In this document: piece by piece, positions 198-53,817 of the stretch
Numbering within the stretch: position 1 is the stretch's first letter
Layout: every line of letters begins with the position of its first letter
DNA from: Myxococcota bacterium
GTDB taxonomy: Bacteria; Myxococcota_A; Bradymonadia; UBA7976; UBA1532
DNA: 64,000 nucleotides
Assembly: GCA_036337435.1 (NCBI GenBank)
Contig: JAYZEG010000024.1
Coordinates: 32,499 to 96,498, forward strand
Reading direction: 5' to 3'
Translations under genes and position numbers: made by a program
Notes under the pieces: generated by a model
What the model was told of the DNA's origin: nothing
Seen by the model: only the letters and a program-made list of their open reading frames with translations
Databases searched by the model: none

Positions 198-246
198 TTA
201 ATCGAGCGTGGAGCTTTGCCTCGCGCCATGCACAGGAGGTCTGGCT

Positions 247-1548
247 ATGCCAGGACTATTGGGTTCATTGTTTGTTGGCCAAGGAGGCCTGAACACCTCC
301 GGTATTGGTATCAGTGTTATTGGTGACAATATCGCAAATTCAAATACGACGGGTTTTAAGACCGCTCGTGCGCACTTCGAAGATCTCTTAAGTGAGTTCA
401 TTGTGGGTGCTGCAGGTGCTAACCAGTTGGGTCGTGGTGTGACCCTTCAACGGATTGAGAAGAGTTTCAGCCAAGGTAGTTTTCAGAGCACGGGTGTCCC
501 CACGGATCTCGCTATCTCTGGTAACGGGATGTTCGTGTTGAGTGGACTGGCTTTAGGGAAATCTCAGAACGTCTACACGCGTAATGGTGCATTTAGATTT
601 GATGACGAAGGGTTCCTTGTCAATCAGGCAGGATATCGAGTTCAGGGTCACAATTCTTCAGAAGCCGGTGAGGTCAGCTCCATCGTAGAAGATGTTAAGA
701 TCGCGCCGGGCCGTTTGCTACAGCCCAATGCAACCGATGAAGTCATCATCAACGCCAACTTTAGACCTGATGATCCGATTTTCGCCTTCGACGTCAACAA
801 TCCTGAAGACACTGCGACCTTTAGAACATCGGTCGTCGCTTTTGATGGGTTAGGTAATCCCCATGAAATCACCGTGTATGGTAGCCGGACTGCGGCCAAC
901 GAGTGGGACATGAACGCCGTGGTTGATGGTGCTGATATCGCCGGTGGTGCTGCGGGTGTCCCAACCCTAATTCCACTGGGCACCTTATTGTTTGATCAGC
1001 AGGGACAGTTGCTCGATGAACAGATTAATAACCCCATCAACATTCCGTGGGCTGGCACAGTTCCGGGTGATGTCACCTTTGAGTTTGGTGATGCCATTAA
1101 CGATGGTGGTACAGGACGTGAGGGCACCACTCAATGGAATGAAACATCGGAAAGTGTCGCTCACTACCAAAGCCAAAATGGGTATGGCACCGGCGAACTC
1201 GATGGGATTTCCATCGATGACCGAGGTCAAATTATTGGTGCGTTTACCAATGGTAGACAGCAGATTTTAGGCCAGGTGATTTTGGCTAAATTCGCAGACC
1301 CAACTGGATTGGCGATGGTCGGTGGGAACAACTTTGTTGCGACAGCCGCCAGTGGTGAGGCCATCGTTGGTGAAGCGCGCGGAGGCGGGAGAGGCGCGAT
1401 CGTTGCATCAACCCTCGAATTGTCGACCACTGAGCTGAGTGGTCAATTTATCGATTTGATTACCTATCAGCGCGCATTTCAGGCGAATTCCAGAACGATT
1501 CAAACAGCAGATGGCCTGTTGCAGGAGATATTCCAGATTCTAAGATAG
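247..1548 (+). CDS. flgE: Flagellar hook protein FlgE
   Basis: N-terminal GDNIANSNTTGFK, TGVPTDLAISGNGMF, YTRNGAF, C-terminal LELSTTELSGQFIDLITYQRAFQANSRTI; AGGAGG RBS before ATG 247. Confidence 0.95.
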   Translation: MPGLLGSLFVGQGGLNTSGIGISVIGDNIANSNTTGFKTARAHFEDLLSEFIVGAAGANQLGRGVTLQRIEKSFSQGSFQSTGVPTDLAISGNGMFVLSGLALGKSQNVYTRNGAFRFDDEGFLVNQAGYRVQGHNSSEAGEVSSIVEDVKIAPGRLLQPNATDEVIINANFRPDDPIFAFDVNNPEDTATFRTSVVAFDGLGNPHEITVYGSRTAANEWDMNAVVDGADIAGGAAGVPTLIPLGTLLFDQQGQLLDEQINNPINIPWAGTVPGDVTFEFGDAINDGGTGREGTTQWNETSESVAHYQSQNGYGTGELDGISIDDRGQIIGAFTNGRQQILGQVILAKFADPTGLAMVGGNNFVATAASGEAIVGEARGGGRGAIVASTLELSTTELSGQFIDLITYQRAFQANSRTIQTADGLLQEIFQILR

Positions 1549-1572
1549 CGACATCTCAATTTAACTAAATGA

Positions 1573-2015
1573 CGGCATCTTGATCGATGTTGGGTGCATG
1601 ACCGCTCGGCGGTGGCTGGTCCAGGGAAGGACCGGTGGTTCGCAACAACTGACCACGGAAGGAAAGGTAACGGACCAGGCACGGCCAAGCGGTCGGCACC
1701 CAGCTGATCATGCTCTAGGATGGAGCATAACGAGATGACCGAAGGAGCAAACGGGTAGAAGACAAAATCAACCTCACCGAGGGGTTGAGCTTTTGACAAA
1801 TGACTCCATGAATCTAGCGACGCACTCGCATCGCTAGATCCTCGCGCATGTACCTGAGGAATACCCAGCCTCATAACAGGGTGCATGTGCAAAAAAAGAG
1901 ATGGGATAGACCCATTTCCCATCTCACAAGGCGCCAACAAGACCCATAACCGATTGGTGCTTACTCGAGTGCCCGGTAGCTACCCACTACCGGGCACTCA
2001 TCCCCCTCTCTTTTT
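1573..2015 (+). ncRNA. Putative large structured non-coding RNA (GGA-rich domain plus ACCCA-loop hairpin array)
   Basis: Eight or more helices readable by eye, G-U wobbles mostly on the + strand, recurrent loop motif ACCCA, no credible ORF; see findings. Confidence 0.65.
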
Positions 2016-2142
2016 GATTGGGGTTGAAGATTGGAATTTGGTACCGCACGATTTTCTCACGTGCGTGTAGACGACATTTGGTTTAATCTCCCACAAAGTA
2101 GGTCAATGTCCTACGGTGGCAGAATGGAAGTTAGGTGCCTTC

Positions 2143-2694
2143 ATGGCTGAAGAGAATGAAGATCCACAGGCAGAAGAAGAGGGCGGAGAAGAGTCCGAAG
2201 GCTCTGGTGGTGGTGGTAAACTGGTCCTAATTATTGGTCTAATCAACACCATTGGACTTATCGGTTTGGCGTACATGGGCATGACTGGTGGCTTCGGCGG
2301 CGGGGGCGGTGGTCCAACGCTCAGTCCAGAGGCCATGGGAGAAAGTGCGCTTCAGGGTAAGAAAACCGTTGAAGACCGGCCCTCGGCCGCGCCCGGACCT
2401 AAAGTAGAGCTTGGTGAGTTGGTGGTTAACCTCAAGGAACCCACGGGCGATCGCTTTCTGAAAATCAAAGCCGAGCTGGAATTAGACAGCGAAGAGACGC
2501 GTGCGGAAGTTGAAGGTCGTTTGACATCGATTCGTTATGAACTCAATCTATTGCTCTCTGGGCAGCGGGTCGTCGATGTCCAGGGGCCTGATGCCATAGA
2601 AACCCTACGTAAGGCCATGATTAGACGGGCTAATTCTCGATTGGCCAAAGGGCGGATTGTGAACGTTTGGCCCGGCGAGTGGATAGTGCAGTAA
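2143..2694 (+). CDS. fliL: Flagellar basal body-associated protein FliL
   Basis: Single N-terminal TM, LVVNLKEPTGDRFLKIKAELEL, C-terminal WIVQ; immediately before fliM. Confidence 0.9.
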   Translation: MAEENEDPQAEEEGGEESEGSGGGGKLVLIIGLINTIGLIGLAYMGMTGGFGGGGGGPTLSPEAMGESALQGKKTVEDRPSAAPGPKVELGELVVNLKEPTGDRFLKIKAELELDSEETRAEVEGRLTSIRYELNLLLSGQRVVDVQGPDAIETLRKAMIRRANSRLAKGRIVNVWPGEWIVQ

Positions 2695-4218: not shown

Positions 4219-5565
4219 ATGTACCGCAAGATTCTTATTCTCTTATTCGCAGTCATTGCACCGACTGCTCTCCTGGGCTCAGCCGCTCATGCGAACACAT
4301 TAAACGATGTTCTGTATACCGGCTCGTCTGACCGAATTGAATTCCGATTCAAGACCAACCAACCCGTTGAAGCCGATTCCATCTCGGCGCGGACTGAAGG
4401 GGCTGTGTTGGTCGTCACTTTGTCTGAGACCAAGGTGAAGAGGCACTGGCTGAATCTGAAGGATGTGGATATCAAGCGCGCTTTGGTTCACCCGTCTCGT
4501 CGGGGTGCTGACGCGCGACTTCGCGTTCGGTTTCATCAGGCACTCCCAAACGCGGTGATCCAAAATATCCGAGTACGCCAGGAGAACGGGCGTCTCGTTA
4601 TCTCCATCCCCCGTGATGAGAAGACGGCATTGTATTGGTCGTCAAACCAACCTTCGGCTCCGCAAAATAAAAATGCAAAGCCGCAAACAGACGCGGCTCA
4701 GAGACCGGCCATAGAGCCAACCAAGACCATCGCCCAAGCTGAAACAAAATCAGCACCCGTGGTAGCGGCTACACCAGCAGTTGAACCCACATCTCAGGTT
4801 GACAGAGAGCCTGTGGAGACACCGATTGCAGACAAAACCTCAAAACAAACAGCCACAGTCGGTAGCGACGAGAAGCCTGCAGACGCTAATCCGGTTACGC
4901 CCCAAACCACAAATGCCCTTGGGCAAACATCGAACGACGGCCCTCGGATCGGTGCCTTTGCTATGGCTATGCTCTTCTTGGTCTGTGTTGGCTTGGTGAT
5001 GTTTAGGAAGCTGCGTAACCGAACGACAGCACCGGGTGATGGCCCTATGATCAAACCAGTCAGCACCCACATGCTTGGGCCGAAGCAAGGTCTACTTCTT
5101 GTGGATGTTGCCGGCGATATGGTTTTACTCGGCACAAGCGACAAAGGCGTCCAAATGCTGACCAAGATTGATGGTCGTGAAATGGTCGATACCGACGCGT
5201 TGTCAAAGCAGGTCACACCGACAGATACACAGATTCCAATGTCCGCTATCGAGGCAAATCAGCGGCCGGCTTTCGCAGAGCGCTTTGGACGCGCAATCAG
5301 TCGGATTCGAGAAGCGACCCAGGGAACACAGCAGTATGCAGCCTATCACGCGAATGCAACCCGTCGTCAGGATGAAGAATCCGGCCACTTGGACCACCTT
5401 CTCAACAAGGTCGAGGATGTACACCACGGTGCCTCTGGACGAAACTCGAGACGTGACTTTGCGCCCCTTGAAACCCGCGCTGAAGAGTCGGTCTATGCGG
5501 CGCAACCTCCCGTTGTGCAAAACGATGACCTTTTGAACAAACTCCGAAGTCTACAGGGCGCATAA
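4219..5565 (+). CDS. fliO: FliO-family protein with long N-terminal extracytoplasmic region
   Basis: Between fliN and fliP; TM then [37 protein letters not shown] (FliO domain); N-terminal signal peptide. Confidence 0.8.
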   Translation: MYRKILILLFAVIAPTALLGSAAHANTLNDVLYTGSSDRIEFRFKTNQPVEADSISARTEGAVLVVTLSETKVKRHWLNLKDVDIKRALVHPSRRGADARLRVRFHQALPNAVIQNIRVRQENGRLVISIPRDEKTALYWSSNQPSAPQNKNAKPQTDAAQRPAIEPTKTIAQAETKSAPVVAATPAVEPTSQVDREPVETPIADKTSKQTATVGSDEKPADANPVTPQTTNALGQTSNDGPRIGAFAMAMLFLVCVGLVMFRKLRNRTTAPGDGPMIKPVSTHMLGPKQGLLLVDVAGDMVLLGTSDKGVQMLTKIDGREMVDTDALSKQVTPTDTQIPMSAIEANQRPAFAERFGRAISRIREATQGTQQYAAYHANATRRQDEESGHLDHLLNKVEDVHHGASGRNSRRDFAPLETRAEESVYAAQPPVVQNDDLLNKLRSLQGA

Positions 5566-53007: not shown

Positions 53008-53817
53008 ATGGTGACGGGGAATCGGTTGGACAGCAAAATCTGGTCGGCATTGGCGATTTGGTTCGGAGCCTACGGGGTACTTCTGATTTTATCCCGTCAC
53101 TGGCCCTTCCCCGGAGAAGCTCTGTTCGCCTTTTCCATCAGCTTTGTCCTGCTGTCTTTTTGCGTCGTCATCTCGGCCGCATGTGCCTCTGGCGTTGTCG
53201 AACACGCTGGTCGACTACCGCCTTGGCATGCGCTTGTCCCACTGGGTTTTATAGGCTTAGGCACCGGTGTTCCCTTGCCGCCAGATTGGGTCTATCCTTG
53301 GTATGGATTTTCGCTTCTTTGGCTCGCATCGGTTTTGGGGGCTCGACTTGGGAGTGAAATACAAATTTCATCCCACGTATGGCCATTGATTTTGGTCGCG
53401 TGCGCATTCGACTACTGGAGTGTTATGGCACCCGCTGGTTTGACCCATGCAATGGTCGAAGAACCGCGGCTTGTGTCCTCCATCAACCCATTGATTCTTG
53501 TGTTTCCAATTCCGCTTGCAGGGCCACAACCCATTCTTGGCGTTGGCGATGTGGTCTTTGCGGGCTTCTGCATGGGCATTGTCAAAAAACTAGCGTTGAA
53601 TGCGACACGGGCATGTGTGGGTTTGGTCGCGGGGTTGCTCGTCTGTCTTGGACTCTTATTGACCATGCAGATTCCACTCCCCGCCTTGCTGTGCATCGGG
53701 CCTGCATTTGGGCTCTCTTTTGGCGGTGTCTTCAAACCCAGGTTCAAAGACTTGCTGGGCGCGCTCGTCTTTGTCGCAGTGGGTCTGTTTGTCTTGACGG
53801 CCCTCCGTTCAGCCTGA
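53008..53817 (+). CDS. Putative presenilin/SPP-like GxGD intramembrane aspartyl protease
   Basis: About nine hydrophobic segments with AFDYWSV, LGVGDVVF and LPAL motifs in the family order; start could be 52975. Confidence 0.6.
   Translation: MVTGNRLDSKIWSALAIWFGAYGVLLILSRHWPFPGEALFAFSISFVLLSFCVVISAACASGVVEHAGRLPPWHALVPLGFIGLGTGVPLPPDWVYPWYGFSLLWLASVLGARLGSEIQISSHVWPLILVACAFDYWSVMAPAGLTHAMVEEPRLVSSINPLILVFPIPLAGPQPILGVGDVVFAGFCMGIVKKLALNATRACVGLVAGLLVCLGLLLTMQIPLPALLCIGPAFGLSFGGVFKPRFKDLLGALVFVAVGLFVLTALRSA

Follow-up and report, generated by a model that had tools for sequence, protein, structure and literature searches.

The 567-nt spacer between flgE, which encodes the flagellar hook protein, and fliL in a 64,000-nt stretch of a Myxococcota bacterium genome (contig JAYZEG010000024.1; the whole stretch is hereafter called the window) carries a candidate non-coding RNA of about 450 nt. 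Its hallmark is an array of hairpins that forms the 3' half of the spacer (1763–1999) and displays the same ACCCA motif in successive loops. Comparison across related genomes gives good support for a genuine, conserved family of structured RNA that has apparently not been described before. For its function we put forward, tentatively and with confidence somewhat short of even, a multi-loop antisense RNA tied to the hook gene, which would contact flagellin mRNAs at the start codon and at a hairpin about 93 nt upstream and restrain their translation.

The candidate RNA starts directly 3' of the stop codon of flgE (208–1548, plus strand; Pfam FlgE_D2, LlgE_F_G_D1, Flg_bbr_C and Flg_bb_rod) and lies on the same strand. 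Its ends, predicted from sequence, place the whole element at 1549–2015 (plus strand), comprising a 5' domain, the hairpin array and a terminator-like end, with the structured RNA at about 1549–2010. The minimum free energy (MFE) fold of 1549–2115 reached −238.7 kcal/mol (z = −9.70), and 0 of 100 shuffled sequences were as stable; the minus strand of the same segment gave z = −6.95. A first reading of the letters alone, made without database searches (the sequence-only reading), had described four hairpins with ACCCA loops preceded by two with variant loops. The four motifs were found on the plus strand at exactly those positions, 1863–1867, 1910–1914, 1942–1946 and 1982–1986, all in hairpin loops of the MFE structure, which likewise contains the variants ACCGA (1776–1780) and ACUC (1824–1827) as described. 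That the stems share no sequence was also borne out, both on the hairpins read from the sequence and on the MFE fold.

The six hairpins, all on the plus strand, differ in build. Hairpin 1 (1768–1788), with loop ACCGA, is not kept as an ACCCA hairpin. Hairpin 2 (1812–1839), whose loop contains ACUC, is a degenerate copy that we regard as decayed because the orthologous loop reads ACCCA in three relatives, G003 (ctagcgg-TACACCCATG-tcgctag), G021 (cgatgcccggg-TCACCCAG-cccgggcgtcg) and G043. Hairpin 3 (1845–1891) has, in the MFE fold, an inner stem of 1854–1858/1869–1873 that closes the loop AAUACCCAG. Hairpin 4 (1898–1925) consists of a 9-bp stem (1898–1906/1917–1925) and the loop UAGACCCAUU, and hairpin 5 (1929–1962) of a 9-bp stem (1929–1937/1954–1962) and the 16-nt loop CAAGACCCAUAACCGA. 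Hairpin 6 (1967–1999) is a G+C-rich terminal helix of 13 bp (1967–1979/1987–1999) with the loop CUACCCA. A run of five U residues follows at 2011–2015, 12 nt past hairpin 6, and because of this distance a simple terminator scan made no call for hairpin 6 in the window.

On both strands of the 64-kb window ACCCA occurs 150 times against 105.7 ± 10.3 expected, or about once per 850 nt per strand. Four copies within 124 nt compare with about 0.15 expected, which corresponds to a Poisson probability of about 2e-5 per stretch and of the order of 0.02 over the window. Chance clustering is therefore unlikely, yet this figure alone is not overwhelming, and related genomes provide the stronger test. 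As a separate observation, three ACCCA copies lie exactly 43 nt apart inside an open reading frame (ORF) at 53443–53533 (plus strand); a tandem repeat there was rejected, as Tandem Repeats Finder reports none.

An array of hairpins with (G)ACCCA loops was present downstream of flgE in all 20 flagellated genomes examined in the window's family (G000, which is the window's own 4.38-Mb assembly, G001, G003, G004, G006–G011, G013–G015, G018, G020–G022 and G041–G043), counting two partial cases: the contig of G013 ends inside the array, and G011 has just two ACCCA. The gene fliM was found in 20 of 28 family genomes. In the DNA upstream of fliM, 57 of the 70 ACCCA in the spacer zone lay within a loop under a permissive rule (stem of at least 4 bp), and most genomes contributed. 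Four genomes were negative upstream of fliM, and their arrays were located behind flgE elsewhere, in G018 and G009 with a 3×GACCCA pattern and in G004 and G007 through the position of flgE. Since the gene after the array in G018 and G009 is not fliL, the RNA belongs to flgE rather than being a fliL leader, and fliL is a dispensable neighbour. Outside the family the array was absent from all eight flgE-bearing genomes of the class (three from the sister family and five from two other families); in the sister-family genomes G025 and G026, fliL follows flgE after 70–90 nt without an array. Because every flagellated genome within the family carries the array, a presence/absence correlation inside the family is impossible. 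As an observation on the sister family, the flgE–fliL spacer of G027 (locus L139, first 110 nt after flgE) begins with six tandem copies of about 13 nt (GGGCGCTGACYAR), with no ACCCA array.

The loops proved far more constant than the stems that present them. A BLAST search with the spacer matched 6 of 41 related genomes, including 70% identity over spacer positions 38–567 in the congener G001, and alignments with two congeners and three other genera kept ACCCA while the stems changed. Across 18 arrays, counted over the last 240 nt (or less) before the end of the terminal hairpin, ACCCA was the commonest 5-mer (66 copies in 4,237 nt; the next, GACCC, had 60). Every one of the 18 had at least two copies, and 48 of the 66 were unpaired in at least four of their five positions in the MFE fold. 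The consensus loop is (A/C/U)(G/U)ACCCA(Y), with ACCCA mostly adjoining the 3' strand of the stem. The comparison of loop with stem conservation in homologues that the sequence-only reading had suggested came out in its favour: loops are kept and stems differ or covary, most clearly at hairpin 3, where a MAFFT alignment shows ACCCA (1863–1867) invariant in 16 of 16 genomes while the flanking stem letters vary.

The terminal helix provides further evidence of structure. It is G+C-rich and 12–14 bp long. Of the 16 aligned genomes, 14 have CGACCCA, UCUGACCCA or CUACCCA as its loop, while G003 has UGGCCA and G011 has UGAAUG. Over the 16 genomes all 192 of 192 alignment cells are paired, 9 of 12 pairs have changed on both sides and 0 of 500 shuffles scored as high, whereas pairing fell to 36–47% in sliding controls. 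A run of six to eight U residues directly follows the helix in many relatives.

Such an ending would also suit a cis-acting 3' trailer that protects the flgE mRNA from 3' exonucleases and insulates the next operon, the motif then being a processing or decay signal. This explanation accommodates an array that always lies directly after flgE, closes with a strong covarying helix followed in many relatives by a U run, and stays with flgE where fliL is elsewhere. We nevertheless consider it very unlikely. Protection requires structure, not an invariant loop sequence repeated four to six times, and a complementary, family-specific hairpin in flagellin leaders, described below, would be left unexplained. 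In G004 (locus L138, 2801–2830), moreover, a terminator-like hairpin with a U6 run stands right after flgE and is followed by a three-hairpin ACCCA array, so that the flgE mRNA does not simply end with the array there, and the array may be a separate transcription unit in that genus.

The antisense reading draws on where sequences complementary to the loops occur. A genome-wide search for ACCCA hairpins, which the sequence-only reading had also suggested, did not yield a wider set: on both strands of the 4.38-Mb genome ACCCA-loop hairpins accounted for 690 of 10,957 (6.3%), against 6.2–6.9% for nine permuted 5-mers, and there was no genome-wide enrichment of ACCCA in hairpin loops. Clusters of at least three ACCCA loops within 300 nt numbered only two, namely the array itself and one further cluster on contig C28 (C28:41320–41507). 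The latter is on the strand opposite a flagellin gene, facing its leader and first codons. Read as mRNA, this leader contains the hairpins gccga-UGGGUAG-ucggc and ugcgca-AAGAUGGGUC-ugcgua, the second 97 nt before the start, and the gene itself begins AAAG-AUG-GGU-CUU.

The same letters recur among the other flagellin genes of this genome. Five of its seven flagellin paralogues start with AUGGGU and three with AUGGGUCU; the leader hairpin just described also occurs in a second paralogue, on contig C30, at −93. Among plausible gene starts of the genome, 15 read AUGGGUC, three of them flagellin, and four read AUGGGUCU, again three of them flagellin. Individual array loops match these sites beyond the core motif. 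In two flagellin genes the start codon with its next 6 nt reads AUGGGUCUU, to which AAGACCCAU, part of the hairpin 5 loop, is complementary at 9 of 9 positions. All 10 nt of the hairpin 4 loop can pair with GAUGGGUCUG in the flagellin leader hairpin (8 Watson–Crick and 2 G–U pairs), and CUACCCA, the loop of hairpin 6, is complementary to UGGGUAG. G021 also shows a match between an array loop, CGACCCAUCG, and its own leader loop, CGAUGGGUCG, with a score of 11 when wobble is allowed.

We then compared 91 flagellin starts from 15 family genomes with 30 starts from five genomes outside the family. The family leaders, 27.2 kb in all, hold 21 copies of UGGGUC and 10 of its complement, and 13 of the 21 fall between −115 and −65, in 8 of the 15 family genomes; in the 8.9 kb of the 30 leaders outside the family UGGGUC was not found (0 occurrences). 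The leader copies nearly always lie in a hairpin loop. Thirteen of the 91 leaders, from 8 of the 15 family genomes, have a hairpin with a (G)AUGGGUC loop (GAUGGGUC) at −73 to −109, while its stems differ between genera and are of at least five kinds (gcgca/ugcgc, ggacguu/gacgucc, ggcgcc/ggcgcc, cagcca/uggcug and ugagcg/cgcucg). At the start itself, AUGGGUC(U) was found in 43 of 91 family flagellins. The leader motif and the array thus co-occur at the level of the family, which could reflect a single evolutionary event.

These observations bear on the two options that the sequence-only reading had offered, a sponge for an ACCCA-binding protein or a multi-seed antisense module. The antisense module is the better supported of the two, with different targets from those then suggested: UGGGUC sites of flagellin genes rather than the tracts next to the fliN and fliA starts. 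Those tracts are just GGGU(C) or GGGGU, with no UGGGU, and fliN and fliA were rejected as targets because the GGGU 4-mers are no more frequent than chance.

The mechanism that we propose would run as follows. The RNA would be made from the DNA directly 3' of flgE, either as a trailer carried by the flgE mRNA or as a transcript of its own that begins just past the gene, and would end at the terminator-like hairpin whose loop itself carries the motif. Its four to six loops would present (G/U)ACCCA(U) as repeated antisense seeds, which would engage UGGGUC of flagellin mRNAs by loop–loop (kissing) interactions or short duplexes. Two contact sites are predicted, one at the start codon (AUG-GGU-CU), where pairing would keep ribosomes from entering, and one at the conserved hairpin loop GAUGGGUC about 93 nt 5' of it. 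Having several identical loops, one RNA could hold two sites of a single mRNA, or several of the mRNAs of at least seven flagellin paralogues, and in this way the synthesis of filament protein would be coupled to expression of the hook gene. Flagellin genes have reached high copy numbers in this lineage, each family genome giving 4 to 11 N-terminal matches (loci L016–L045, L067–L124 and L147–L176). The sister-family genomes G025, G026 and G027 gave 22, 16 and 9 flagellin matches at a looser E-value cut-off, some of them inside ORFs of 1,300–1,870 amino acids.

Several results weigh against this antisense proposal. The start-codon motif UGGGUC is also present in 7 of the 30 flagellins outside the family, so it predates the array, and selection by the array cannot explain it. 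GGU is the commonest codon for glycine at position 2 both in the family (52 of 82) and outside it (14 of 19). The coding of Met-Gly-Leu largely fixes the letters of the start motif, and the array, if it is antisense, makes use of a conserved sequence older than itself. Loops and targets did not covary significantly by species: the longest match averaged 8.85 nt within a genome and 8.43 nt across genomes (permutation p = 0.09). In G010, whose array has six ACCCA loops, none of the 4 flagellin starts and leaders recovered contains UGGGU, in an assembly of 1,140 contigs. By plain duplex energy, three G000 flagellins ranked 47, 150 and 157 among 3,481 crude gene starts (top 1.4–4.5%) and the other four only 991–2472, while rank 1 went to a spurious ORF antisense to the array itself. 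There are also 94 AUGGGUC sites in hairpin loops of the genome. All flagellin counts are overstated, since paralogues and related genomes are not independent. Finally, support for a plus-strand transcript, for its ends and for its binding comes from sequence, the RNA libraries having been seen as contigs.

Some of the same results would be expected if the loops were instead repeated sites bound by a protein specific for (G)ACCCA on the 3' side of a loop, with the RNA titrating or assembling copies of that protein as CsrB and RsmZ do with CsrA. A protein site would account for a motif that is invariant while the stems and the remaining loop letters vary, for the uniform geometry in which ACCCA usually adjoins the 3' strand of the stem, and for the four to six copies per RNA; it would be untroubled by the missing species-specific covariation and by the G010 flagellins without UGGGU. 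Titration is also plausible for this transcript in that its GGA-rich 5' domain resembles a CsrA binder and the genome encodes CsrA and FliW. We nonetheless judge a protein platform somewhat unlikely. ACCCA-loop hairpins are not enriched across the genome and similar sites do not form a visible regulon; the analysis turned up no candidate protein, CsrA being an unlikely partner because the array loops lack GGA; and a protein platform gives no reason for a complementary motif in conserved flagellin-leader loops of the same family only.

The 5' domain (1583–1735, plus strand) was delineated with RNAalifold and consists of a long closing stem, GGA segments (CCAGGGAAGG and CCACGGAAGG) and an apical hairpin, AUGCUC-UAGGAUG-GAGCAU, at 1711–1729, whose loop is UAGGAUG here and AGGGAA elsewhere. 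Across eight genomes RNAalifold predicted 46 pairs, 21 of them with compensatory changes, and the GGA blocks CCAGGGAAGG and CCACGGAAGG are invariant in a six-genome alignment. A pattern scan of genome contigs with the core of this domain returned seven loci, six of which lie in Myxococcota-type metagenome-assembled genomes (labelled Bradymonadia, Myxococcales and Nannocystaceae); L011, from a Thiotrichales metagenome-assembled genome, was rejected as a homologue, being a chance match in a different context. In G009 and G004 the array is present but no 5' domain can be recognised, which makes the array the more universal part of the RNA.

The same domain bears on the suggestion that the ACCCA loops pair with G-rich tracts of their own RNA and give it a compact tertiary fold. 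The sequence-only reading had pointed to UGGGU at 1591–1595 and to GGGUAG at 1753–1758, the latter able to pair with CUACCC of hairpin 6. Both tracts exist. The first is not free, as it pairs with ACCCA at 1698–1702 inside the covariation-supported stem of the 5' domain, and the second is not conserved in the two congeners G001 and G003. With G009 and G004 also retaining the array in the absence of a recognisable 5' domain, intramolecular partners were rejected and such a fold is hardly credible.

The GGA segments and the UAGGAUG loop resemble CsrA-binding sites, the latter by comparison with the CsrB repeat CAGGAUG, and CsrA of a FliW-type system may be a partner of the 5' domain. In the window's own genome csrA and fliW lie side by side (C28:31292–31952; L065 and L066) in a late flagellar cluster, with flgK/flgL-like genes, fliD, flaG and five flagellin paralogues as neighbours. 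Flagellin ribosome sites are within UUCA-WGGAG-UGAA hairpins, which are of the CsrA-site type. A bipartite riboregulator, which we regard as unlikely, would combine these elements with the array: the 5' domain, through CCAnGGAnGG repeats and the UAGGAUG hairpin, would bind CsrA, the GACCCA array would tether flagellin mRNAs at the start codon and the −93 hairpin, and the RNA would antagonise or deliver CsrA in a FliW-type Csr system, linking hook expression to filament synthesis. For systems of this class, a report on Campylobacter jejuni describes a study of CsrA control where antagonising small RNAs are absent (PMC4894983).

With regard to expression, contigs assembled from metatranscriptomes (four runs from four studies) cover 1611–1983, for example 1613–1942, 1611–1861 and 1832–1983, the last without differences; such RNA-library contigs give no information on strand, ends or level, the libraries may contain DNA, and gaps in cover prove nothing. 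Mean word depths of 27.3, 79.2 and 48.7 for contigs on 1611–1983, against about 7–14 for flgE and about 3–7 for fliL, were not used as evidence of abundance or termination because contig depth cannot rank genes or parts of genes. The orientation of flgE, the U run after the terminal helix in relatives and five G–U cells in that helix all fit a plus-strand RNA. A simple scan found no sigma-70-type promoter on the plus strand within 1400–2250. The ORFs that overlap the RNA, of 61 amino acids on the plus strand and 146 on the minus strand, are disrupted by 1- and 2-nt indels in the congener G001. The runs that contain this stretch of the window are seawater or marine metagenomes, which, with the labels of the relatives, makes the organism an uncultured marine member of the Myxococcota. 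Metatranscriptome contigs of other organisms share only the core of the 5' domain (1612–1663) before continuing into unlike sequence, with loose ends at 1642 and 1663 in three runs, and relatives of the RNA are therefore present in those RNA libraries.

Searches for known relatives returned nothing comparable. A BLAST search of the window's own assembly returned the spacer itself only, with no second copy. Rfam gave no family at gathering score across the window, nor did the CsrB, CsrC, RsmX, RsmY and RsmZ models match; at E ≤ 10 the interval 1400–2300 gave just three chance-level matches, including a 13-nt MS2 operator match at 1855–1867, and 12 homologous loci gave none. A literature search, which covered a limited collection, retrieved no paper on flagellar small RNAs of Bradymonadales or Myxococcota and no description of this RNA.

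In its way of working, the closest parallel is RNAIII of Staphylococcus aureus, which uses the C-rich loops of hairpins 7, 13 and 14 and makes two loop–loop contacts with rot mRNA, in the 5' untranslated region (UTR) and at the ribosome-binding site (PMC2837412). Both are long structured RNAs with several hairpins that share a C-rich loop motif (CCCA in RNAIII loop 7), and the RNAIII targets rot, coa and spa carry a complementary G-rich motif in hairpin loops, as do the candidate flagellin targets. The features that recur here in silico are repeated C-rich loops on varying stems and a complement both at the initiation region and in an upstream hairpin loop, so that the predicted two-site geometry comprises the leader hairpin at about −93 and the start codon. 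The likeness is one of a works-like class only; the two are not homologous in sequence or structure (no Rfam match). In the present RNA the motif is (G)ACCCA in four to six copies, which would be aimed at the start codon and codons 2–3 rather than at the Shine–Dalgarno sequence, and the RNA is tied to a flagellar gene rather than to quorum sensing and encodes no peptide.

In genomic position the nearest counterpart is CJnc230 (FlmE) of C. jejuni, which is encoded behind flgE and arises by processing of the hook mRNA; its targets flgM and Cj1387c are repressed by base pairing at the ribosome-binding site (PMC11187230). It is an RNA of 88–98 nt with one single-stranded seed that adjusts late gene expression, flaA serving as a negative control (PMC11187230). 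The RNA described here is likewise directly downstream of flgE on the same strand, in 20 of 20 family genomes. Compared by size and architecture it differs, being about 450 nt long with a multi-loop array and a GGA-rich domain, and its best predicted targets are flagellin mRNAs. In Escherichia coli, the sigma-28-dependent small RNAs FliX, MotR, FlgO and UhpU come from UTRs of flagellar genes and modulate flagellin level and the number of flagella (PMC10578931). These UTR-derived RNAs have no repeated loop array and no sequence relation to the RNA studied here.

Two further groups resemble the array in design. CsrB, RsmY and RsmZ consist of many hairpins with one short loop motif, GGA, which is bound by CsrA or RsmA. 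The array shares the principle of a repeated short loop motif, but it fails the defining GGA feature of CsrB/RsmZ sponges: the loops AAUACCCAG, UAGACCCAUU, CAAGACCCAUAACCGA and CUACCCA lack GGA, which is found only in 1583–1735. RsaE/RoxS and 6C RNA use the C-rich loops of two to four hairpins to pair with G-rich sites in mRNAs; their loops are CCCC or UCCC and are directed at Shine–Dalgarno sequences. Rfam yielded no match to them in the window or in the 12 homologous loci. Judged by Rfam and, for CJnc230, by size and architecture, the RNA does not appear to be a homologous member of any of the systems compared.

Were the proposed mechanism correct, an uncultured marine Myxococcota family would time flagellin synthesis through an RNA attached to the hook gene. 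This would be a second, independent case, after CJnc230, of a riboregulator placed behind flgE, built on the multi-loop kissing principle of RNAIII, possibly with a CsrA-binding domain attached. The FliW–CsrA–flagellin checkpoint would gain an RNA layer, and there would be a compact natural example of a multivalent antisense RNA acting on at least seven paralogous mRNAs. Whatever the mechanism, the result is a well-supported new structured RNA family with covariation in both domains, absent from Rfam and searchable in marine metagenomes and metatranscriptomes.

The gene flgM provided a further lead. In G000, G001 and G002, all of the window's genus, flgM starts with AUGGGUG and has a leader hairpin whose loop contains UGGGUAG, the complement of the hairpin 6 loop. 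In the window's own genome flgM (C28:27868–27960; L177/L178) has a sigma-28-like promoter, TCAAG-N15-CCGATG, and the leader hairpin aucccc-CGUUUUUUUGGGUA-gggggu at −26. Across the family, UGGGU occurs at −50 to −26 in 11 of 17 flgM leaders, mostly right after the sigma-28-like −10 box (CGAUGnnn-UGGGUG), and for that reason it may be a feature of the promoter or of the start site. The AUGGGUG start together with the UGGGUAG loop is not kept family-wide; in other genera UGGGUG comes right behind the −10 box. A rule that sigma-28 transcripts begin with UGGGUG was rejected, since most of the 150 matches to a loose promoter pattern were spurious and flagellin gene 1 reads GUAGGUG instead.

The remaining features of the locus concern the genes 3' of the spacer. 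fliL (2116–2694, plus strand; Pfam) is the first gene of a downstream fliLMNOPQR-flhBA-flhF-flhG-like-fliA block, in which ORFs and Pfam matches give the order fliL, fliM, fliN, fliO, fliP, fliQ, fliR, flhB, flhA and flhF, followed by a ParA/MinD-type ATPase and then a sigma factor with FliA-like domains. The FliO-family protein (4219–5565, plus strand) is unusually long at 448 amino acids, with a big N-terminal extension and the FliO domain at residues 266–359. A small hairpin, GUAGG-UCAAUGU-CCUAC, lies at 2098–2116 (plus strand), about 30 nt 5' of the conserved fliL ATG (2144), and is kept in both congeners along with an upstream UCCCAC.

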